Positions 4,821 through 61,316 are shown, counted from the first letter of the stretch. The stretch: 64,000 bases of DNA from Candidatus Peribacteria bacterium (GCA_943357285.1 CALRGJ010000006.1:10428-74427); one strand, 5' to 3'. Numbers and translations: made by a program. The notes: generated by a model not told the origin, from the sequence alone.

Positions 4821-5642
4821 CTACTTCAGCTTATTTAACGAAGGATGTCCAAGAATTGATTTCATCTGATCAATGGCGATCTGGTTGAGTTCTAGTAATC
4901 TGTGCTCGGGTGTGAGACCTCGCTTTATTAATACCGCATTCAGACTTTCAAGATTACACAACACAACCAATTGCTCAATAGTGGCATAGTCTCGCACATT
5001 TCCTTCTTTATCTGGATTATGTTCGCGCCATTCTTTTGCAGTCAGATTGAAAAGTGCCTTGTTCAACAAGTCTCCTTCGGTCGCATAGATAAATTTATCT
5101 GGTATGTTGCTGATTTTTAAAGGAATTAAATTTTGTTTTATTGCATCTGTATGAATTTTATAATTGACCTTAGCCAATTCTCTTTTTACATCCCATGATA
5201 AGGAAGACTGATTGTTTTCAGTTTCTTTGAGTCTCTGAAATTCTTTAATTAAATAAAGTTTAAATTCTGGACTGATCCAAGATGCAAATTCAAAAGCGAT
5301 ATCCTTGTGGGCGAAGGTGCCACCATTTTTACCAGATCTAGATATAAGACCAATCGCTCCAGTTTTGTTTATCCATCTTTGAGGTGATAATACAAAAGAA
5401 TTACTTCCAGCTTCAATCCTAAAGGGGTCGAATTCGACCCCTTTAAAATCAGGATTATTTAAGTTTTCCCAAATACCCAAGAACTCTATAGTAGCTTTAG
5501 AACGCATCCAGTTTTTAACAATATCCTTTGGTTCGAATTGATTTTTGAAACGTGCAATATCAGTAAGAGATATATAATCATCTTTGTTCTTCTGAAATAA
5601 TGAAATCTCCATACCTTTCACTTCAATTTTTTTATTTTCCAT
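4821..5642 (-). CDS. KilA-N domain-containing protein
   Basis: The N-terminus YISLTDIARFKN...VKNWMRSKATIEFLGIWENLNNPDF matches the KilA-N DNA-binding domain pattern. Confidence 0.8.
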   Translation of the reverse strand: MENKKIEVKGMEISLFQKNKDDYISLTDIARFKNQFEPKDIVKNWMRSKATIEFLGIWENLNNPDFKGVEFDPFRIEAGSNSFVLSPQRWINKTGAIGLISRSGKNGGTFAHKDIAFEFASWISPEFKLYLIKEFQRLKETENNQSSLSWDVKRELAKVNYKIHTDAIKQNLIPLKISNIPDKFIYATEGDLLNKALFNLTAKEWREHNPDKEGNVRDYATIEQLVVLCNLESLNAVLIKRGLTPEHRLLELNQIAIDQMKSILGHPSLNKLK

Positions 5643-5804
5643 ACTGAAAATGAGTTAAATATTAATTCAACTCAAAAGTGTACCCGGCAAAGTTAAAATT
5701 TTCTTAAATTAATTCTAAAATCTCATCAATCGCTCCCCTAAGCCATCTGTGCTTGCTTTTTCTTGATTTTCTGATAAAATTGTTTTCTATTATTAAAAAG
5801 ACTC

Positions 5805-7676: not shown

Positions 7677-9935
7677 CTATTTACATGTAGGGGATTTTAC
7701 TGGTGCTTTGATGCGTACAAGCACGCTGGCATTTGGAGTAGCGATGTCAACGTAGTACGTTTTAAGCGTTGGAGGGGTTGTTGGATTGAAGGTAAGTGGA
7801 CCATCGTATGGATTCCAGACTTCGATCGGTGGCTGATTTTTTTCATCAACCAGGATCTTGATTCCTTCAGGACCTCCTTTAATCAATCCCACCATGGGGA
7901 GTTCATCACAACCTCCCTGTATGGAAGGAATCATGAAATAGCCCATAGGCATTAGTTCAACTGTAATGAAACTGTAGGTGTCGGTGCCAGGGATGAGGTG
8001 GGAAATTGACCACTGCCCACCTGGGGAACCGATCCACACAGAGAAGCCTTTCTCAGGGTCGCAGGTCCAGTTTTGAGTATCTACTAGACACTGCCCACCA
8101 ATGCACTTTCCCACCGGGCAGTTGTAGCAGGGATCCGCTTTGCACTTGTTGGCTGAGTTGCAGATCTGACCTTCCGGACATGAGGGACACAGTTGGCTGA
8201 GGCCATCGCATCCGGGATTTGTCATTGCACACTTGCCACATTCGCATCCGAGTTCTTCGCAGGACTGAACTTTGCATTTGTAGTGACATTTACCATCGAC
8301 AGCTGAGCAGAATTTGTCGTTGGGACATGTCCCGCAACTTCCGCCACACGAGTCCGAGCCGCACTCATTTTGGTAGCAGGCGGGCTTGCAGGTTTGTGTA
8401 TCCTTGCCGTCCGTGCTTGCATAAAAACTTCCAGCATCCTGCTCTCCTGTGCCGCCGCCGTACTGACCGCTGCCGGGATTTTCATCCTGAGAAACGGTGC
8501 TCTGACCTTGGCCGCACATGTAGCCCGACTGATTGCACTCGCACCCGCCCTGACACTTGTTTTTGTAACAGTAGCAGGGCGAAAGTGAAGTGATCATTCG
8601 CGCATACTCGCCGCGTGTCACGAATTCGTAGGGGTCGTATTGCAGAAGATCCTTGTCGATTCCGTTGTAGTAGGCGATGGTTTGCAGATACTTGTAGGAC
8701 CAGTCGCTGCTCTTGAGTTTCAGGAATTTGGCATACATGCCGGTCTTGAGTTCCGCCTTGTTGGCTTTGACCGCAGACTCGACTGCCATTTTCGCTGCTT
8801 CCGAGAAGTAAATCTCCTGTTCAGGGTTGAAGTGATCGTTGTCCTTGCTGATGACGCCGTACTTCACGCCGCAGACCACGAAGGGATAGAACCATTGAGA
8901 AGGATTTACATCCGTGAATGGTTCCAGAGTTCCTTCGCAGTCTTTGTCGAGACCGAAAAGAGCCAGTGCAATTTTCAGCGCTTCCGCTCGGGTGAGGTTA
9001 TCATCCTTGTGGAATTTACCGTCGCTTTTGCCGCTCACGGCACACTCGTGCCAGAGGTAGTTCACTGCCCAGGCAGTAGTGCTATCCGAAGAACTGAGAT
9101 CCTTGAAAGGAGTCTCGCTCTTGTTCTCGCAGTCCTCATTCATCGGGCATTGCATCTCGCAGACTTGAGGCGGATCAGGCTCCTGCTCTGGAGGGGTGGG
9201 TTCTTCTTGAGAATTATCCACTTCCGAGCAGTCAGCCTTTTCCACGTTTGTCAGCTTGAGCGCAGTGTAGATGCCATCCGTATAGATGTCGTTGCCGACG
9301 ATGCACTTAGGCACGCCGTTGCCGTCAGTGAATCCCATCTCGATGGGCAGGTGAGTCTCGCAGTCCTCGAACTGGAAGTGGAGGTGAGCACCTGAAACAT
9401 TTCCAGTCTTGCCGATTTCTCCGATCTTAAGACCCTGACACACCTCCATATCCTGAGCCACGCTTACGGACCCATCAAGCATGTGTGCGTAACGAGTGCA
9501 GATGTTGTTGCCATGATTGAGCAGCACGAAGTTGCCCCAGCCCTTGGATTTGCCAATCTCCTTCACGGAGCCGTCAGCAGAAGCCAACACTGAATCACCC
9601 ATGTCAGAATCTTCAGGCAAGCTGAAGTCCCAACTGAAAACCGCGTGCTCCAGAACAGTATGAGACGAATCGCAGAACGAGAGCGGATCTGTACCATACT
9701 TTTGATCGCACGCCTCGCAATGCATGCCCCAGGACTGAGTGATTTCCCAGTTGTAGCCCTGCGGCACCGGCACCTTGAAGTTGCTGCCGATGAGGTGGAG
9801 GCGATTGATCGAGTAGCCGACTTCAGTAGAAGTAGTATCGAATTGAATGGAGTTAATCTCCTTTTCCTTGTTGTTGGAATTGCACGCCGTGATCACCATG
9901 ATCATGACGAGCAGCTTGTAGATGTTGTGCAGCAT
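7677..9935 (-). CDS. lipoprotein with M23 peptidase domain, three SLH-like repeats and a cysteine-rich region
   Basis: Lipobox VITAC. M23 motifs (GSVKEIG...GNFVLLNHG...TRYAHM...GNVSGAHLHFQFE). SLH-like repeats (FKDLSSSD..TAWAVNYL...LTRAEALKIA; FTDVNPSQWFYPFV). A Cys-dense block (CGSDSCGGSCGTCPNDKFC...). Strong SD aaGGAGAAAgctcATG. The gene is much richer in G+C than its neighbours. Confidence 0.85.
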   Translation of the reverse strand: MLHNIYKLLVMIMVITACNSNNKEKEINSIQFDTTSTEVGYSINRLHLIGSNFKVPVPQGYNWEITQSWGMHCEACDQKYGTDPLSFCDSSHTVLEHAVFSWDFSLPEDSDMGDSVLASADGSVKEIGKSKGWGNFVLLNHGNNICTRYAHMLDGSVSVAQDMEVCQGLKIGEIGKTGNVSGAHLHFQFEDCETHLPIEMGFTDGNGVPKCIVGNDIYTDGIYTALKLTNVEKADCSEVDNSQEEPTPPEQEPDPPQVCEMQCPMNEDCENKSETPFKDLSSSDSTTAWAVNYLWHECAVSGKSDGKFHKDDNLTRAEALKIALALFGLDKDCEGTLEPFTDVNPSQWFYPFVVCGVKYGVISKDNDHFNPEQEIYFSEAAKMAVESAVKANKAELKTGMYAKFLKLKSSDWSYKYLQTIAYYNGIDKDLLQYDPYEFVTRGEYARMITSLSPCYCYKNKCQGGCECNQSGYMCGQGQSTVSQDENPGSGQYGGGTGEQDAGSFYASTDGKDTQTCKPACYQNECGSDSCGGSCGTCPNDKFCSAVDGKCHYKCKVQSCEELGCECGKCAMTNPGCDGLSQLCPSCPEGQICNSANKCKADPCYNCPVGKCIGGQCLVDTQNWTCDPEKGFSVWIGSPGGQWSISHLIPGTDTYSFITVELMPMGYFMIPSIQGGCDELPMVGLIKGGPEGIKILVDEKNQPPIEVWNPYDGPLTFNPTTPPTLKTYYVDIATPNASVLVRIKAPVKSPTCK

Positions 9936-56340: not shown

Positions 56341-56823
56341 TTATTCTTGTGCTGCTTCATCCAATGCCTTCACGTCTCTTGCAACCTCGTCTGGATGATC
56401 GCTAGGAGATACTTTGATGTAATGCTTTACAACTTTTCCTTCTCTATCTATTAGGAATGAATCACGACGAATTCCCATGTAGGTTTTTCCATACATAGAT
56501 TTTTCTGTCCAGACTCCATATTTATTAATCACTTTTTTATCTTCATCAGAAAGCAGTGGGAAGTTCAATTTCTGTGCCATTACAAATTTTCTGTGAGACT
56601 CTGTGCTGTCCGCACTTACGCCCAAAACTTGTACGCCAAGTTTTCTCAAGTAATTCAGCTTATCTCTAAAACATTGAGCCTCTATCGTGCATCCGGGAGT
56701 TGCATCTTTTGGATAAAAATACAGCAATATCCACTGGCCTTTATAATCAGCCAAAGAACGCACTTCATCATCCTGATCTTTTAGTTTAAAATCAGGAGCT
56801 TTCTTGTTTACTAAGTCTGCCAT
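56341..56823 (-). CDS. bcp: thioredoxin-dependent peroxiredoxin (Bcp type)
   Basis: YFYPKDATPGCTIEAQCFRD active-site region. Confidence 0.93.
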   Translation of the reverse strand: MADLVNKKAPDFKLKDQDDEVRSLADYKGQWILLYFYPKDATPGCTIEAQCFRDKLNYLRKLGVQVLGVSADSTESHRKFVMAQKLNFPLLSDEDKKVINKYGVWTEKSMYGKTYMGIRRDSFLIDREGKVVKHYIKVSPSDHPDEVARDVKALDEAAQE

Positions 56824-56825
56824 AA

Positions 56826-57599
56826 TTATTTTGTTGTCTTTAATATCGGTTCAATTACAGCTTGGAATTTTTCGAATGGTTGAGCGCCGCTAATAATTTG
56901 TCCGTTAATTATGAATCCTGGAGTTCCATTGATTCCTGCACTTTGACCCGCTTTTTGATCCGCTTCAATTTCATCTTTAAATTTATCACTATCAAAACAA
57001 GTTTTTAATTCAGTCTTATTGATGCCTAGGCTCACCGCAAATTTGCTCATTGCGTCATAATCAAATTTTCCATTCTGCACTGTCTCAAATAATTTATCGT
57101 GCACTTTATAGTAATCTGCATCTGGATTTTTTGAAACACTTCTAGCGCATTCAGCAAATAGAGCTGAAGGGTAAGCGTAAGGATGGAAGCTAAGAGGGAA
57201 GTCACGGAATACTAACTTCGCTTTTCCTGTGTCTATGTATTGGCTCTTAATTTTTAGATAAGCTTCATTTTCAAAAATTCCGCAATAAGGACATTGATAG
57301 TCAGAAAATTCTACGATTGTTACAGGGGCATCTTTATCACCAAGTACGGCGTCATCATCCGTAAAATCTCCTTCAACGAATTTAGGTTTAGCTGCTTCAG
57401 CTTGAGCATCTGCAGATTTTTTCTGTTCATTCTCAATATAAGCCTCTATACCTTTAAAAACTTTTGTCTGCAAAACATCATCTGTTAAATTGCCATTAGA
57501 AATTTTAACTCCAAAAAATACTAGAGAACCGGAAATTGCTACTGATGCAAAAAGTATCGCTGCAATTACATTTTTAGAATTCTTATCATTAAGGTTCAT
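56826..57599 (-). CDS. membrane-anchored DsbA-family thiol:disulfide oxidoreductase
   Basis: N-terminal TM. FSDYQCPYC active site. GINGTPGFIING near the C-terminus. Confidence 0.85.
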   Translation of the reverse strand: MNLNDKNSKNVIAAILFASVAISGSLVFFGVKISNGNLTDDVLQTKVFKGIEAYIENEQKKSADAQAEAAKPKFVEGDFTDDDAVLGDKDAPVTIVEFSDYQCPYCGIFENEAYLKIKSQYIDTGKAKLVFRDFPLSFHPYAYPSALFAECARSVSKNPDADYYKVHDKLFETVQNGKFDYDAMSKFAVSLGINKTELKTCFDSDKFKDEIEADQKAGQSAGINGTPGFIINGQIISGAQPFEKFQAVIEPILKTTK

Positions 57600-57696
57600 A
57601 TAAAAATAGTTAGGAATTTGCTGACGAATTATAGACCAAGCGGATATATATTCAAAGTTTTTTGTGAATTTCTCTTTTTTAATTTATGATACACAC

Positions 57697-58461
57697 ATGA
57701 AATTAATTTCTTGGAATGTAAACGGTCTTCGCGCTGCCGAAAAGAAAGGCTTTATAAAATGGCTTCACAAAGAGAAACCGGACATTATTGGGCTGCAGGA
57801 AATTAAGGGACACGAGCATCAATTCAGTAAAGAATTATTAGCTCCGGATCATTATCATGCTTATTTTAATCCGGCTCAAAGGAAGGGATATTCTGGTACA
57901 GCTATTTATACTAAAGTTCAACCTCATGAGATTTTGAATGGCTTCGGCGTTGAAAAATTCGATTCCGAAGGGCGTACGCAAATTGCTGATTACGGAGATT
58001 TTGTTTTTATAAATATATATTTTCCTAATGGGCAGAGGGATCAGGAAAGATTGGATTACAAAATGGCTTTCTACGATGAGGCTTTGAAATATTTTGATAA
58101 ATGTGTGAAGGAAGGGAAGAAACTTTTTATTACCGGAGATTACAATACAGCGCACAAAGAAATAGATCTTGCTCGTCCTAAAGAAAATGAGGGGACTTCC
58201 GGCTTCTTACCAATTGAACGCCGATGGCTAGATAAATTAGTGGACCATGGATTCATTGATTGTTTCCGCGAATTTAATAAAACTCCGGAGTGTTACACTT
58301 GGTGGAGTATGCGTGGTGGTGCGAGATATAGAAATGTTGGCTGGAGAATTGATTATTTTTTCTGCTCAAAAAACGCTCGCAGCATGGTGAAAGATTGTTA
58401 CCATTTGCCTGAGATAATGGGATCGGATCATTGTCCGGTGGTGCTTTTTATTACACCTTGA
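57697..58461 (+). CDS. xth: exodeoxyribonuclease III
   Basis: The ATG at 57697 gives MKLISWNVNGLRA...GLQEIK...GDYNTAH...WWSMRGGARYRNVGWRIDY...GSDHCPV. Confidence 0.93.
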   Translation: MKLISWNVNGLRAAEKKGFIKWLHKEKPDIIGLQEIKGHEHQFSKELLAPDHYHAYFNPAQRKGYSGTAIYTKVQPHEILNGFGVEKFDSEGRTQIADYGDFVFINIYFPNGQRDQERLDYKMAFYDEALKYFDKCVKEGKKLFITGDYNTAHKEIDLARPKENEGTSGFLPIERRWLDKLVDHGFIDCFREFNKTPECYTWWSMRGGARYRNVGWRIDYFFCSKNARSMVKDCYHLPEIMGSDHCPVVLFITP

Positions 58462-58472
58462 AAGAACTGGCA

Positions 58473-58488
58473 GGGTAGTAATTATAGA
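58473..58488 (+). repeat. motif copy L: GGGTAGTAA-tt-ATAGA
   Basis: Read directly. It is the left boundary of the GC island. Confidence 0.8.
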
Positions 58489-58554
58489 GGTTCGAGGTCC
58501 GGGACGGCGCTTTGACTGTGGCTTTCGCCACGTCGCAGCAATCCTTCTCGAAAA

Positions 58555-58573
58555 TCTATTCACATTACTACCC
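58555..58573 (-). repeat. motif copy M: GGGTAGTAA-tgtga-ATAGA (on minus strand)
   Basis: The plus strand reads TCTAT-tcaca-TTACTACCC. It pairs with copy L to close a ~100-nt hairpin. Confidence 0.8.
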
Positions 58574-58658
58574 AACCAGCTCAGTCATCGTCTCCGCGGA
58601 GCTCGCCCAGCTTTGGGGGTCATCGCCATGCGGATTGGATTGTAGTAGCCCTCGGGAC

Positions 58659-58686
58659 GGTCACGTAGCGAGCTCTGCTACTGACC
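58659..58686 (-). terminator. GC-rich stem-loop 10 nt after the second mini-ORF (no T-run)
   Basis: Minus strand: GGTCAGTAGC-agagctc-GCTAC(g)TGACC. Confidence 0.3.
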
Positions 58687-58696
58687 GTACCTTTGG

Positions 58697-58864
58697 CTAC
58701 GCGCGGCTGCCGGCACGGCGAGCACCGAGTCGCTGCACCTCCTTGCGGTGGTGAGCGATCTCGTTCACGGGGACATCGTGGTTCGGTCGGCACGACGTGC
58801 AGCGAACCGTCTTCTGCTTGGAGCCCTGGGAGGGCTTCATTTGCCGATCATCTCGTTTAGACAT
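58697..58864 (-). CDS. 55-aa Arg/Lys-rich protein with CX2CX3HX8H motif (not in supplied ORF track)
   Basis: gaGGAGAAAtcaccgATG. Hand translation: MSKRDDRQMKPSQGSKQKTVRCTSCRPNHDVPVNEIAHHRKEVQRLGARRAGSRA-stop. GC3-rich codons. It is a paralogue of the upstream ORF in the V.CT.C.RP.H....A.H segment. Confidence 0.45.
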   Translation of the reverse strand: MSKRDDRQMKPSQGSKQKTVRCTSCRPNHDVPVNEIAHHRKEVQRLGARRAGSRA

Positions 58865-58911
58865 CGGTGATTTCTCCTCTTGGGGCGCCGTAGCGCCGGT
58901 TGTTCGTGTTG

Positions 58912-59172
58912 TCAGACGCCGAGAACCTTGCGGATCTCGGTCGGCATGTGCTCTGCAGGAACGTGCGCATAGGCAGCGCGCATGTTGCGCAGACGGATGA
59001 CGGCCTCGCGGTCGCTCACCGGGGCGGGGGGCTGCTGCTGACGCGTGGCCTTGCGGTCACCCTTGCTCGCGAGCGAGTTGAGGTGCGCGGCGAGGTCCTT
59101 GCTTTGCAGCTTGTGGGGGCGATCGCACTCGGTGCAGGTGACGTAGTCCCGGCGATTGGGCTGAATACGCAT
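58912..59172 (-). CDS. 86-aa basic protein with CX2CX3HX9H motif
   Basis: caGGAGAAAccaagcATG. Protein begins MRIQPNRRDYVTCTECDRPHKLQSKDLAAHLNSL... GC3-rich codon usage is consistent over the whole ORF. Confidence 0.55.
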   Translation of the reverse strand: MRIQPNRRDYVTCTECDRPHKLQSKDLAAHLNSLASKGDRKATRQQQPPAPVSDREAVIRLRNMRAAYAHVPAEHMPTEIRKVLGV

Positions 59173-59197
59173 GCTTGGTTTCTCCTGACGGTGAACT

Positions 59198-59217
59198 CTC
59201 GAGATTTCTTTCTCGAG
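59198..59217. promoter_or_regulatory. perfect palindrome CTCGAGA-N6-TCTCGAG in the leader of the 86-aa ORF
   Basis: Read directly. It lies between the putative minus-strand promoter (59299-59273) and the SD (59185-59179). Confidence 0.35.
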
Positions 59218-59274
59218 TGTGTGGTTGGTTCCTCGGGATACTACATTTCTCCCGAAGACTCTGTAACGTGAAAT

Positions 59275-59289
59275 TCTATGTTACTACCC
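59275..59289 (-). repeat. motif copy R: GGGTAGTAA-c-ATAGA (on minus strand)
   Basis: The plus strand reads TCTAT-g-TTACTACCC. It is the right boundary and lies between a TTGACA and a TAGAAT on the minus strand. Confidence 0.8.
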
Positions 59290-59588
59290 TTGTTGTCAAA
59301 TTGTGAACGGTCGAACTTCGACCGCTCTCAAATTGCTTTGGAGGGGAGTTACAAGACCTTCACGGACAAGGATACTATTAGAAACTTCTCGATCACGCAA
59401 GGGTAAATTCGTTAATCAGTATAATGTTTTTTGACAGGAGTCAAGTTTTGCTTTAAATCGTACGAATTAATTTAGGAAAATTTTAAGAAAATTTAAGAAA
59501 CGCCTGTTACCATTTTAGGCAAGCAAAGATTTCACAAAGATCTTTGCAATTAAAAAAAATACTACTATTATTCGTAACCCAAGATCAC

Positions 59589-60212
59589 ATGAAAAAGGAA
59601 ATTATGACTCTCTCAAAATTAGCAGCAAATGTAGGTCAGTTCTCTGTGCTAGTAAAAAAACTATCTGTTAATGTAGATAAATTATCAACCAGGATAGTAG
59701 AAATGGATGAGAAGTTTGAAAAGAGATTCGATGGCGTAGATAAAAAAATCGATGGAGTAGATAAAAAAATAGATGCAGTGGATAAAAAAGTCGATGCAGT
59801 GGAGAAAAAAATCGGTGCAGTGGATAAAAAAGTCGATGCAGTAGAGAAAAAAGTCGATGCAGTGGAGAAGAGATTAACTGTCGTGGAAGATCAATTTGAT
59901 AGTCTAGCCTCTTCGACAGCCAGTGGTTTTTTGCACTTGCAAAATCATTTTGACAAACGCTTTTTAGAGATGGATGAAAGACTCTCCAGTCTGGAAGAGA
60001 GGGTCTCGGCCATTGATCAGCACATCAGTAAAATGCATCTGGACGTTGTTGATATAAAAGTTGATGTGAAAGAATTGAGAGACAGAATATCTTCTCTAGA
60101 ATGTAGAGTTGCAGGCTTGGAATATAGAAGTGGACGAGTGGAAGACGCTGTCGTTTCGCTGGAAGAACGCATCTCACACATAGAGAATCAGCTCGGACTC
60201 TCCAAAGTTTAG
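59589..60212 (+). CDS. coiled-coil protein with heptad tandem repeats
   Basis: The ATG at 59589 gives MKKEIMTLSKL...; the track starts at a TTG at 59544. Central (G/A)VDKK(I/V)D x7, then further heptad-like sequence. Confidence 0.6.
   Translation: MKKEIMTLSKLAANVGQFSVLVKKLSVNVDKLSTRIVEMDEKFEKRFDGVDKKIDGVDKKIDAVDKKVDAVEKKIGAVDKKVDAVEKKVDAVEKRLTVVEDQFDSLASSTASGFLHLQNHFDKRFLEMDERLSSLEERVSAIDQHISKMHLDVVDIKVDVKELRDRISSLECRVAGLEYRSGRVEDAVVSLEERISHIENQLGLSKV
59730..59876 (+). repeat. 7 tandem copies of a 21-bp coding repeat
   Basis: The unit gatgSMgtRgaKaaaaaaRtc is repeated head-to-tail from 59730. The units encode DGVDKKI/DAVDKKV/DAVEKKI and similar. Confidence 0.9.
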
Positions 60213-60221
60213 ACAAAAGTT

Positions 60222-61316
60222 TTAGTTCAAAAACCCAAACTTCTTATCTATCCATTTATTTTTTGAATACACTTTTTTGCCGTCGAAATATATTTCTGCT
60301 TCCGCCCAATCAAAACGATAAATTAAATCCCAGTGCACGCTGGAATCATTGCCATTTGGACATTCTTCATAGCATCTTCCCAAAGCCATATGCAGACTCT
60401 TTCCCATTTTTTCATCGAATAAAATCTGGCGAGTGCCTTGTTTAATCATGTCATTCAAACCAAAAGCAAACTCACCGTAATAGCGAGATCCAGCATCCGT
60501 ATCTAGAATTTCTGTCACGCCTTTTTGATTGTTTGATTCTTCCTTGATTACTTTTCCATCCTTCAGCCACAACTTCACCCAATCAAAATCTTGTGACTGA
60601 TAATGAGTTGGTACATTGTAACGAATCACTCCATTCACAGAAGTTCTAATAGGTGCTGTAAAAATTTCTCCATCTGGCAAATTGCGCTTTCCGCAGCAAG
60701 TTTTCCATTTCTGACCGGCAATAGATAAGGTCAGGTCAGTCTCCTTTCCGGTAATTTTCACATCTTTCACTTTCAACATCAATTCCTTGAATTTTATTTC
60801 CATTTTCTCCACTTGTTTCCAATCTAGTAGGCAAGTATCGAACACAAATTCCTCCCATTCTTCCAAGCTTTTCTTTGCCAACATTGCTGACGCCACATTT
60901 GGATAATAGAAAAGACACCAACGTTTTGTATGCAAAATATCACCAATAACTTTACGAGATTTTTGTACTGCATAAACTTTTTTAATATCCACGTCACTCA
61001 TCTCATAAGGATTGGCATCAGCCACAATCTGTACCATTGCATCATAACTATCTGCCACTTTTTTATCCAAGTCGCTGAGATATTCCATTTGCTCTTTATT
61101 AGCATGATCAAAAAAAACTTTGCTCAATTCATCATGACCAAATTTTACATCTACTTGAATAGCACCAGCTTTAATACATTCGCGATAAAGCTCTTTAATC
61201 AAAGGAAAACCATCGAAACCATAAGCACGAATTAAAATCTTTTCACCTTTCTTTACTGCAATAGAATAGTTAGCAATTATATCCGCCAACTTCTTTAATT
61301 TTTGTTTATCAACCAT
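60222..61316 (-). CDS. M29 family aminopeptidase (AmpS/PepS-like)
   Basis: LADIIANYSIAVKKGEKILIR...CIKAGA, GEFAFGLN and HMALG motifs. Confidence 0.88.
   Translation of the reverse strand: MVDKQKLKKLADIIANYSIAVKKGEKILIRAYGFDGFPLIKELYRECIKAGAIQVDVKFGHDELSKVFFDHANKEQMEYLSDLDKKVADSYDAMVQIVADANPYEMSDVDIKKVYAVQKSRKVIGDILHTKRWCLFYYPNVASAMLAKKSLEEWEEFVFDTCLLDWKQVEKMEIKFKELMLKVKDVKITGKETDLTLSIAGQKWKTCCGKRNLPDGEIFTAPIRTSVNGVIRYNVPTHYQSQDFDWVKLWLKDGKVIKEESNNQKGVTEILDTDAGSRYYGEFAFGLNDMIKQGTRQILFDEKMGKSLHMALGRCYEECPNGNDSSVHWDLIYRFDWAEAEIYFDGKKVYSKNKWIDKKFGFLN

Follow-up and report, generated by a model that had tools for sequence, protein, structure and literature searches.

A GC-rich module of two small zinc-finger genes enclosed by conserved hairpins at a fixed site in AT-rich Peregrinibacteria genomes

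We analysed a compact GC-rich module of two small genes, located on the minus strand of a 64-kb stretch of an AT-rich genome of Peregrinibacteria, a candidate phylum of the Candidate Phyla Radiation (CPR). The whole stretch (GCA_943357285.1 CALRGJ010000006.1:10428-74427) is referred to as the window, and coordinates given without a contig name are counted from its first letter. GC content amounts to 0.595 at 58471-59292, with a maximum of 0.67 in 200-nt segments, against 0.379 over positions 1-58400. It climbs right after the stop codon of xth (TGA, 58459-58461) and is below 0.45 again past ~59300. The conserved unit, which extends from ~58459 to ~59444, is broader than this GC island, and the surplus is a 5' leader of moderate GC. 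By part, GC is 0.65 in the coding cassette, 0.55 in the 3' untranslated region (UTR) and 0.45 in the 5' UTR. The two open reading frames (ORFs) of the module, ORF1 and ORF2, have third-position GC (GC3) of 0.83 and 0.75, respectively, and follow the order GC3 > GC1 > GC2, whereas 42 of the 43 remaining window ORFs of at least 150 aa have GC3 of 0.23-0.43, with a single outlier that is described below.

The same locus is present on 21 independent contigs (L001-L021), taken from Logan, ENA and NCBI records and differing in samples, assemblers and archives. They include a metagenome-assembled genome (MAG) from Lac Pavin annotated as Candidatus Peregrinibacteria (L003) and assemblies of Hainich groundwater (L015-L017). 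Four lineages are represented. In the first, the window group, M29 aminopeptidases are 97-100% identical and flanks are 92-99% identical at the nucleotide level. The second (L018-L021) has M29 85% identical to that of the window; the third (L005 and L015-L017) has M29 80%, DsbA 56% and ThyA 84% identical to the window proteins; the fourth (L006) has DsbA 50% and AhpC 62% identical. Gene order is Aldedh-M29-module-(xth, opposite strand)-DsbA-AhpC-DHFR-ThyA-DCD in the window and L018, Aldedh-M29-(two small genes)-module-DsbA-DHFR-ThyA-DCD in L015 and L016, and module-sigma-like gene-DsbA-x-AhpC in L006. In window coordinates, the conserved upstream neighbour is the M29 aminopeptidase gene (60222-61316, minus strand) and the conserved downstream neighbour encodes a DsbA-like thioredoxin-fold protein (56826-57599, minus strand), both on the strand of the module; AhpC (56341-56823) follows the DsbA-like gene. 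The convergent neighbour xth (57697-58461, plus strand), of the exodeoxyribonuclease III family, has host-like GC3 of 0.35.

Site and orientation of the module are constant in all 21 contigs, each of which crosses both AT-rich/GC-rich junctions, and these junctions are identical. In every lineage, module GC is 0.57-0.61 versus 0.38-0.44 in the flanks. The module is single-copy in each stretch searched and occupies the locus in all four lineages sampled, so that no empty site was found. Relatives of the 86-aa ORF1 protein are rare: first 2 and then 12 clusters were retrieved from 5.8 billion clusters, and an exhaustive profile search of 1.84 billion representative proteins gave seven matches. 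Five of the seven had their context looked up and all lie in AT-rich CPR settings, while the remaining two are the L003 MAG protein and a repetitive protein judged spurious. Searching 185,579 species genomes with a DNA pattern returned one match. No module homologue in another genomic context was found among these proteins and clusters, nor in the further collections: blastn of the module DNA against phage and plasmid collections gave nothing, and neither a DNA pattern of the 5' hairpin nor peptide patterns revealed relatives in IMG/VR or JGI metagenomes. Taken together, these data show that the locus is vertically inherited, syntenic and single-copy, and that it belongs to one Peregrinibacteria subclade only. 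It may have been acquired anciently, at the base of that clade.

In the direction of transcription (59444 to 58459), the module consists of a TTGACT hexamer, a ~230-nt leader with hairpins H1-H4, ORF1, an intercistronic GC hairpin, ORF2 and a ~240-nt trailer with hairpins T1-T3. TTGACT (59439-59444) is the sole conserved element in an otherwise variable upstream patch. Its equivalents occupy the matching relative place in other lineages (TTGACT-16-TAAATT in L015, TTGACT-17-TTAAAT in L006, TTGACA in L018), and we infer that it is the putative -35 element of the module promoter; the -10 element is harder to assign, TATACT at 59418-59423 (spacer of 15 nt) being an uncertain candidate. Another promoter-like sequence of sigma-70 type, TTGACA-15-TAGAAT, is found inside H2, where it overlaps box A (see below); it was rejected, its -10 hexamer being destroyed in about half of the alleles.

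In the leader, H1 (59385-59403; detected by RNAalifold) is a short CUUG/CGAG stem with a variable loop. H2 (59261-59367) is a long imperfect hairpin with an 84-nt core at 59280-59363. Its C-rich 5' arm carries box A' (GUAACUCCCCU, 59342-59352), which pairs imperfectly with box A (GGGUAGUAAC, 59280-59289) on the 3' arm. H3 (59231-59257; CUUCGGGA...UCCCGAGG) is deleted in L003, and H4 (59198-59217; CUCGAG-N8-CUCGAG) is replaced in L002. Both ORFs are preceded by a GGAGAAA Shine-Dalgarno sequence. ORF1 (58912-59172) encodes 86 aa with isoelectric point (pI) 10.1 and has its Shine-Dalgarno sequence, CAGGAGAAA, at 59179-59187; ORF2 (58697-58864) encodes 55 aa with pI 11.2, with GGAGAAA at 58871-58877. 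Between them, the hairpin GGCGC-UACG-GCGCC (58884-58897) is kept in all alleles, including variants with changed loop or closing pair (GGCGCUGAGGCGCC, GGUGCUACGGCGCC and GGCGCAAGCGCC). In the trailer, T1 (58645-58700; GUAGCC...GGCUAC) shows paired changes in L001, L011 and L013 and is deleted in L003 and L007, T2 (58594-58633; CCGCAUGGCGAUGACCCC-loop-GGGCGAGCUCCGCGG) has invariant stems, and T3 (58459-58587) is a ~129-nt terminal hairpin closed by pairing of box B (GGGUAGUAAU, 58564-58573) with box C' (AUUACUACCC, 58473-58482). The 3' arm of T3 overlaps the xth stop codon in the window group; there is no such overlap in L018.

A 123-aa ORF on the plus strand (58900-59271), which has a counterpart in L003, is the exact reverse-complement frame of ORF1 and was not retained as a gene: its start and Shine-Dalgarno sequence are not conserved. 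It is best seen as a by-product of GC-rich codon usage, which makes stops rare (few TTA, CTA and TCA triplets).

Box A and box C' belong to inverted repeats. Positions 58473-58488 read GGGTAGTAATTATAGA, the left-hand repeat, and 59275-59289 are the reverse complement of GGGTAGTAACATAGA, the right-hand one; they contain a perfect 10-nt inverted repeat that extends to GGGTAGTAA-N1-2-ATAGA. A single 10-nt inverted repeat per ~1 kb is not significant, about 0.5 being expected by chance according to our estimate. GGGTAGTAA occurs in three copies in the 64-kb window, all of them within the island, versus 0.2 expected, and none of 100 shuffles gave three. Boxes A and C' flank 799 bp, and the four box copies altogether form two inverted pairs around the ORFs. 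No target-site duplication is present, as the flanks GAACTGGCA and TTGTTGTCA share nothing.

Much of this had been described in an earlier reading made from the window alone, here called the sequence-only reading. It had proposed a high-GC island with edges near the xth stop and ~59300, bounded by inverted repeats and holding two GC3-rich minus-strand ORFs with Shine-Dalgarno sequences, a GC stem-loop, several palindromes and a terminal hairpin. This description stands: the repeats sit exactly at 58473-58488 and 59275-59289 and are conserved across lineages, the ORFs are real genes to judge from the ratios of nonsynonymous to synonymous divergence (dN/dS) given below, and the terminal hairpin, put at ~100 nt, measures ~130 nt. 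Likewise, no transposase, integrase or reverse transcriptase was found among the island ORFs, and the lack of a target-site duplication beside the repeats and of a match to any known family (searched in Pfam, PHROG, PADLOC, NCBIfam, PDB and Rfam, none with a significant match) proved correct.

The hairpins were examined for signs of RNA-level conservation. Compared with dinucleotide shuffles, fold z-scores are -5.2 for the leader and -9.5 for the trailer. Alleles of the window group show 100% identity in the 84-nt core of H2 and in ~130 nt of T2-T3, even where their ORF1 proteins share just 52-83% identity. The H1 loop is CGUGAU or UCAUAU depending on allele, the stem remaining intact when U-G is replaced by U-A; L018 has no H1. 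In H3, allelic differences are confined to replacements of U-A by U-G and of G-C by G-U; the sense strand still pairs after these, and the opposite strand would be left with an A-C mismatch. H4 in L002 is CGCAAG-N7-CUUGCG, equivalent to two compensatory pairs (read directly, since MAFFT misaligns this segment). The T2 loop differs in nearly every allele and its helix is 100% paired. When L018 and L015 are added to the H2 alignment, six pairs are altered on both sides, for instance G-C to A-U and an A-A mismatch to U-A in L018; single-side changes in L018 are wobbles that pair on the sense strand alone.

In T3, 57 pairs compared over eight sequences are 98% paired, and three apical pairs are compensatory (UA/GC/CG, AU/GC and GC/AU) in at least two lineages. 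In 500 column shuffles the T3 covariation score was never reached, and sliding the structure by 1-3 columns left no compensatory pair. A covariance model of H2 matches the window at 59256-59371 with 119 bits. Over 157 kb, it finds one sense-strand match per locus, with no second copy in the window. Members of the window group and L018 score 107-131 bits, and L005, L015 and L017 reach 69-76 bits; the L006 match, located where it would be expected, has 18.9 bits (E = 0.024). Rfam 15, searched at E up to 1, has no match in 57500-60500, and a single tRNA in the whole window. As far as can be judged from aligned sequences, the substitution patterns show that the UTR hairpins are covarying RNA structures formed on the transcribed strand.

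The boxes join the two ends of the module. A 9-10-bp helix is shared by H2 and T3, namely GGGUAGUAA/UUACUACCC in the window group and L018, GUAGGGUAG/CUACCCUAC in L015 and UAGGGCAGC/GCUGCCCUA in L006. Correspondingly, box A and box C' covary by lineage: they are GGGTAGTAA/TTACTACCC in the window group and L018, GTAGGGTAG/CTACCCTAC in L015 and TAGGGCAGC/GCTGCCCTA in L006, where the arm equivalent to box A', GCUGCCCUA, perfectly complements box A. Between lineages, the box changes in concert at all positions and at both ends. The inverted repeats of the sequence-only reading are thereby shown to be arms of the helices that close H2 and T3. Since independent hairpins would have no reason to keep one helix in common, either a single factor recognises this helix in both UTRs or the boxes pair mutually. 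In each lineage, box A perfectly complements box C' over 9-10 nt, so a conformation in which 5' and 3' ends are paired is possible.

Both ORFs encode putative zinc fingers. The ORF1 protein has an N-terminal C-x2-C-x3-H-x9-H finger followed by a C-terminal helical part (RNMRAAW-H-PAEHMPE), and the ORF2 protein has a C-x2-C-x3-H-x8/9-H finger. The common motif, (V/I)xC-x2-C-xxPH-xxQ-x-KDL-xxH, is kept through synonymous change. ORF2 proteins of L007-L010 and L013 match the ORF1 profile, and by this similarity ORF1 and ORF2 are paralogues. In L015, L006 and L018, the canonical finger resides in the second ORF and the first ORF has a more divergent Cys/His motif. L015 ORF-A has Arg in place of the first His, so the candidate ligand set is uncertain. 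In L018 (10798-10998; likewise in L019-L021), the second zinc-finger ORF, 66 aa with the canonical motif, is uncalled in public records, and missed gene calls thus account for some of the family's apparent rarity.

AlphaFold2, run on a shallow alignment, predicts for ORF1 a beta-beta-alpha unit and two further helices (mean pLDDT 72), with two Cys on the beta-hairpin and the last His on a helix. Foldseek searches with this model gave only E-values above 1, and the best hit of a sequence profile against PDB is the Sgf11 finger with an insignificant E of 0.015. The nearest neighbours in structure and sequence, all weak, are Sgf11, C2H2, UBZ and CHHC fingers. These searches indicate a generic small zinc finger only. 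Domain libraries were scanned with both ORFs and with distant alleles. Neither ORF has a match in Pfam at E up to 1 or in PADLOC, and PHROG and NCBIfam gave chance-level hits only (E >= 0.01, well short of the cut-offs; HNH endonuclease with E = 0.077, archaeal IF-2 beta with E = 0.025).

The coding part forms a recombining, fast-evolving cassette (58712-59181) with sharp boundaries. Between the window and L004, identity is 98.7% in xth, 99.6% in the 3' UTR, 66.5% in ORF1 and 73% in ORF2; it drops at the ORF1 Shine-Dalgarno sequence and recovers ~15 nt before the ORF2 stop. Values of dN/dS are 0.27-0.52 for ORF1, 0.2-1.5 for ORF2 and 0.02 for xth, the ORF2 values of 0.6-1.5 coming from pairs of different allele types, i.e. 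from short, partly saturated and hard-to-align comparisons. Nonsynonymous divergence (dN) in the cassette is ~30x that of xth, at synonymous divergence (dS) of similar order (1.0 vs 0.59 for window against L003). Shine-Dalgarno sequences and ATG codons are conserved across alleles. Codon-level comparison thus shows, within the limits of such estimates, that both ORFs are real genes under weak purifying selection and not hypermutating.

Alleles of the cassette are mosaic. Three allele types of ORF2 can be distinguished, and window-type ORF2 is joined to other ORF1 types in L002 and L012. In L011 and L012, breakpoints lie inside ORF1, the finger being swapped and the C-terminal half identical to that of L001 or L002. 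The simplest reading of these patterns is that diverged alleles or half-alleles pass between related strains by homologous recombination, crossing over within the invariant UTRs. Hypermutation was considered and rejected, as dS is close to that of xth, save where a whole allele was imported. Between alleles, each of the 12 substitution classes is represented 9-27 times, and there are indels as well. As this spectrum is not adenine-specific, a diversity-generating retroelement is excluded; neither a reverse transcriptase nor a template repeat lies in the island or in 52-64 kb.

GC content of the cassette persists through this divergence. Although dS is ~1, GC3 is 0.73-0.83 in every allele and lineage, and the commonest class of substitution between alleles is the C-to-G or G-to-C transversion. 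Third-position changes in three ORF1 triplets of sequences were polarised with outgroups by parsimony. In ORF1, 9 changes from A or T to G or C (W>S) and 22 changes in the reverse direction (S>W) were counted over ~60 W and ~210 S sites. Per-site rates in the cassette are ~0.15 for W>S and ~0.105 for S>W, corresponding to an equilibrium GC3 of ~0.59. For xth, the rates are 0.13-0.17 and 0.27-0.36, with an equilibrium GC3 of 0.28-0.35 and an actual value of 0.35. Per site, S>W third-position changes are thus approximately threefold rarer in the cassette than in xth. Foreign DNA yet to be ameliorated would be expected to behave in the opposite way. The deficit is suggestive of a locus whose GC is maintained near a local equilibrium and does not decay at host rate, as far as such substitution counts can tell.

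As to the cause, a specific fold of the coding core was tried as sole explanation of GC3 and discarded, since the core exceeds shuffles in structure by a small margin only (z = -1.4 and -2.7). GC may instead be kept by selection for generic mRNA stability, by avoidance of AU-rich cleavage sites or by recombination-linked GC-biased conversion.

Several observations concern the surroundings of the module. In the window, the module is adjoined by a coiled-coil gene (59589-60212, plus strand) with a tandem repeat at 59728-59866 that comprises 6.6 copies of a 21-nt unit (7 aa, VDKKIDA-like). This gene is polymorphic, with 207-222 aa here and 169-174 aa in L003 and L018, and L001, L004 and L007 lack it, so that their module begins a few bases past the M29 stop. 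Upstream of the coiled-coil gene of L003, an AT-rich stretch of 39 nt (2239-2277) is 92% identical to window positions 5681-5719, which lie upstream of an unrelated gene of 273 aa (4821-5642, minus strand); this common stretch may be a promoter or other regulatory sequence. In L015, two small genes reside between M29 and the module (1729-2299), one DUF5678-like (72 aa) and one similar to retroviral-type aspartyl proteases (115 aa), so the patch just upstream of the module is a site of recurrent gene gain and loss.

On the other side, a 361-aa gene follows directly after the module in L006 (817-1902). A sigma-70 region-2 domain is recognised in its product at 31.4 bits, which exceeds the Pfam cut-off, and genes for DsbA and a peroxiredoxin come next; this arrangement hints at a regulatory tie to thiol and oxidative-stress genes. 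L005 (ERZ1300416, coverage 0.27) displays many frameshifted genes, including M29, DsbA and ORF-B, in comparison with L015-L017 from the same aquifer; this is low-quality assembly and does not reflect pseudogenes. The second and only other compositional outlier of the window is a 752-aa gene at 7677-9935 (minus strand; GC ~0.53, GC3 0.62). Its product combines Peptidase_M23 and SLH domains with a long C-terminal half rich in Cys, and the gene may be a true case of horizontal acquisition.

The interpretation that we prefer, with a probability of about 0.55, is that the locus constitutes an old, vertically inherited and syntenic module of ~1 kb, in which two zinc-finger genes are combined with UTR hairpins and in which the encoded proteins bind the hairpins in an autoregulatory manner. 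The two parts of this interpretation differ in strength: its structural and evolutionary part is very probably right, while the proposed binding is tentative and, on its own, rather doubtful. According to the proposed mechanism, both zinc-finger proteins would bind nucleic acid, and the box helix common to both UTR hairpins would be the likeliest binding site. Binding could result in autoregulated translation or mRNA stability, or in assembly of a small ribonucleoprotein. An ACUCC-like anti-Shine-Dalgarno stretch 5' of H2 might pair with the Shine-Dalgarno sequence and couple binding to translation, and long-range pairing of box A with box C' might provide an alternative conformation joining 5' and 3' ends. 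Constant position of the module upstream of dsbA-ahpC hints at a role in thiol or oxidative-stress (redox) physiology.

Several points weigh against this interpretation. Function is deduced from nucleotide and protein sequence, which holds for expression, transcript ends and binding alike, and the candidate -35 was not listed by a promoter consensus scan. H2 and T3 are mostly invariant in the window group and alignments of the distant lineages (L015, L006) are partly uncertain; as most H2 and T3 pairs never vary within the group, the covariation signal comes from a small number of events. Sense and antisense strands of the UTRs fold with almost the same energy, so strand assignment leans on the wobble pattern and on the ORFs. 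In the window group, zinc-finger residues around the ligands vary and the boxes are invariant, which makes recognition of the boxes by the variable residues unlikely; a conserved host factor could be the box binder instead. Concerted change of the boxes is the strongest point in favour of reading them as terminal repeats. As to GC, substitution counts are small (9 versus 22), parsimony polarisation is biased in skewed compositions, and specific RNA folding does not explain GC3 of the mildly structured coding core.

Other explanations follow. Going beyond our preferred reading, the locus might represent a self-contained ribonucleoprotein or regulatory module of an undescribed kind, in which the mRNA would switch between two local hairpins and a cyclised form and be bound by the zinc fingers that it encodes. 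Its isolation in composition (GC3 of ~0.8 against ~0.3 in the genome) would have lasted through divergence at genus level or beyond, kept by selection on the whole RNA or by a locus-specific GC-biased conversion that accompanies its frequent recombination. We hold this to be unlikely.

Unlikely too is a selfish or conflict module of two genes (toxin-antitoxin-like, immunity or anti-defence) under diversifying or frequency-dependent selection. Its anatomy would be that of our preferred reading, with rapid protein change and allele swapping as the purpose of the system and not a side effect. Such selection would suit dN ~30x that of xth at similar dS, the ORF2 ratios of 0.6-1.5 between types, and the existence of several deeply diverged mosaic allele types amid flanks that are 92-99% identical. 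The form of the locus, a small two-gene operon of basic proteins next to an upstream patch that gains and loses genes, would agree with it as well. However, the high ratios stem from the saturated short comparisons mentioned above, neither PADLOC nor Pfam, PHROG or NCBIfam contains a matching toxin, antitoxin or defence model, and the proteins are mutual paralogues, as toxin and antitoxin seldom are. Being fixed, syntenic and, it seems, present throughout the sampled clade, the locus also departs from the usual pattern of accessory conflict genes.

That the module is a non-autonomous mobile or site-specific integrative element, moved by a trans-acting transposase or recombinase and inserted repeatedly downstream of M29, is improbable. 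The sequence-only reading had considered a mobile element, and its inverted repeats do bound the island and stay inverted through concerted change in three versions, which is the product expected of co-evolution with one end-binding protein. Each end forms a hairpin, resembling ends of IS200/IS605 type or attC sites; alleles are mosaic, and the adjacent coiled-coil gene is present or absent among relatives. Nevertheless, the unit lacks target-site duplications, has one copy per locus and one match in the 185,579 species genomes, and keeps a fixed site and orientation in the 21 contigs. No gene for a transposase, integrase, HUH (His-hydrophobic-His) nuclease, other recombinase or reverse transcriptase is present in 52-64 kb, and polymorphism between occupied and empty sites is missing in the four lineages. 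The segment that varies among strains is enclosed by the UTRs and does not coincide with the repeat-bounded unit, and changes that involve G-U only point to pairing of one RNA strand. Neither additional repeat-bounded copies nor an unoccupied site in relatives, both of which had been suggested as things to look for, turned up: all GGGTAGTAA boxes are in the module, the covariance model has one copy per locus, and the four lineages are all occupied. Phage or plasmid origin, another suggestion of that reading, finds no support in the searches of phage and plasmid collections, IMG/VR and JGI metagenomes, which all came back empty.

Quite improbable is the view that boxes act as DNA, either as repressor operators or as recombination sites of an invertible (phase-variable) segment, the hairpins being incidental. 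Four copies in two inverted pairs around the ORFs would be suitable for this purpose, sense and antisense energies are similar, TTGACA-like hexamers adjoin box A in three lineages, and palindromic half-site co-variation, as seen in H4, would suit a dimeric DNA binder. On the other hand, wobble-only changes in H3, H2 and T3 keep pairing of one strand, compensatory changes in T3 are located in apical stems far from the boxes, and the -10-like hexamer by box A is destroyed in half of the alleles. As to an invertible segment, one orientation is seen in 21 of 21 contigs, in assemblies that would collapse minority orientations, and no recombinase gene lies in 52-64 kb.

Very improbable is recent horizontal acquisition from a high-GC donor, which was the main inference of the sequence-only reading and would explain GC as un-ameliorated donor composition; transfer from a host to its epibiont is included here and faces the same counter-evidence. 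Codon usage of high-GC type (GC3 of 0.75-0.83 vs 0.23-0.43) with abrupt edges is what such an event would leave, alleles differ between near-identical hosts, and the GC-rich gene at 7677-9935 (GC3 0.62) demonstrates that the genome holds foreign-looking genes. Yet site and architecture are constant in four lineages in which DsbA identity falls down to 50%, dS is ~1 without loss of GC3, GC-to-AT changes are under-represented in comparison with xth, and no donor homologue was found, the contexts looked up being all AT-rich CPR. Finally, an assembly chimera of high-GC reads joined into an AT-rich contig, the exclusion of which was rightly demanded given the abrupt compositional change inside metagenome-derived sequence, can be dismissed, since 21 independent contigs cross both junctions identically and T3 spans the boundary of AT-rich and GC-rich sequence together with the xth stop codon.

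Comparison with known systems reveals partial similarities. Cys2His2 fingers (Ros/MucR, classical C2H2, Sgf11/UBZ/CHHC) resemble the module proteins in two Cys and two His, a predicted beta-hairpin-helix and small size with basic character. Ros/MucR proteins have C-x2-C-x9-H-x3-4-H spacing and classical fingers C-x2-4-C-x12-H-x3-5-H, whereas the spacing here is C-x2-C-x3-H-x9-H. No Pfam or NCBIfam model matched; this includes the ROS_MUCR domain, for which Pfam gave no match at E up to 1. The phage Mu Com protein is a small zinc-finger translational regulator that acts on a hairpin in the leader of mom mRNA. By analogy with Com and with autoregulatory leaders of ribosomal proteins, the module would combine tiny zinc-binding or basic proteins with a long structured leader, and its hairpins would be enclosed by possible pairing between anti-Shine-Dalgarno and Shine-Dalgarno sequences. 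It is nonetheless unrelated to Com in sequence and structure, and differs in having two paralogues and structures at both ends that share one box helix.

Among mobile elements, miniature inverted-repeat transposable elements (MITEs) and IS200/IS605-derived elements are comparable in length (~0.8 kb), inverted-repeat ends, hairpins and lack of transposase. In contrast to them, the module is single-copy at a fixed site without target-site duplication, its repeats are covarying RNA arms and its variable part is internal. Integron cassettes with attC sites are similar as small ORF units of aberrant composition that are exchanged between strains and carry an imperfect end hairpin; the module, however, has hairpins on both sides and no RYYYAAC/GTTRRRY cores at hairpin bases, neither integrase nor attI was found within the 12 kb examined, and homologous recombination in flanks of 100% identity accounts for its exchange. 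Sites of the dif/XerCD type were considered for the ends and rejected, the arms being unlike the dif consensus. Pilin and vls antigenic variation and diversity-generating retroelements share sharp boundaries between invariant and divergent parts and mosaic alleles, but the module lacks silent donor copies in the window or the other loci, has a non-adenine spectrum with common indels, and shows dS similar to its neighbour.

GC-rich intergenic regions mark structured non-coding RNAs in AT-rich genomes, which has been used as a search principle (PMC8632094). The UTR hairpins of the module conform to it in being GC-enriched, conserved and covarying, but the highest GC is found in coding sequence, at synonymous sites. 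Altogether, no described protein family, RNA family, class of mobile elements or defence system fits the locus. Its ingredients, i.e. small zinc fingers, structured UTRs and allele exchange via conserved flanks, are familiar and their combination is unusual. Unusual above all is that high-GC codon usage has been kept for a long time inside an AT-rich genome.

Compositional outliers are usually read as recent transfer, and this actinobacterial-looking segment persisted while its neighbours diverged to 50% identity. Not every GC island in a MAG should thus be taken for contamination or transfer. If our reading is true, the locus would be a clean natural case of local GC upkeep against strong AT mutational bias, and the question of selection versus biased conversion would become testable on a target of 500 bp. 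Very little is known of the repertoire of regulatory RNAs and small proteins in CPR, and modules of this kind escape protein-based surveys because one of the ORFs is left uncalled in public MAG annotation. The locus would add to this repertoire an unannotated family of small zinc fingers whose ligand spacing is unusual, along with two or more new RNA structures that covary.

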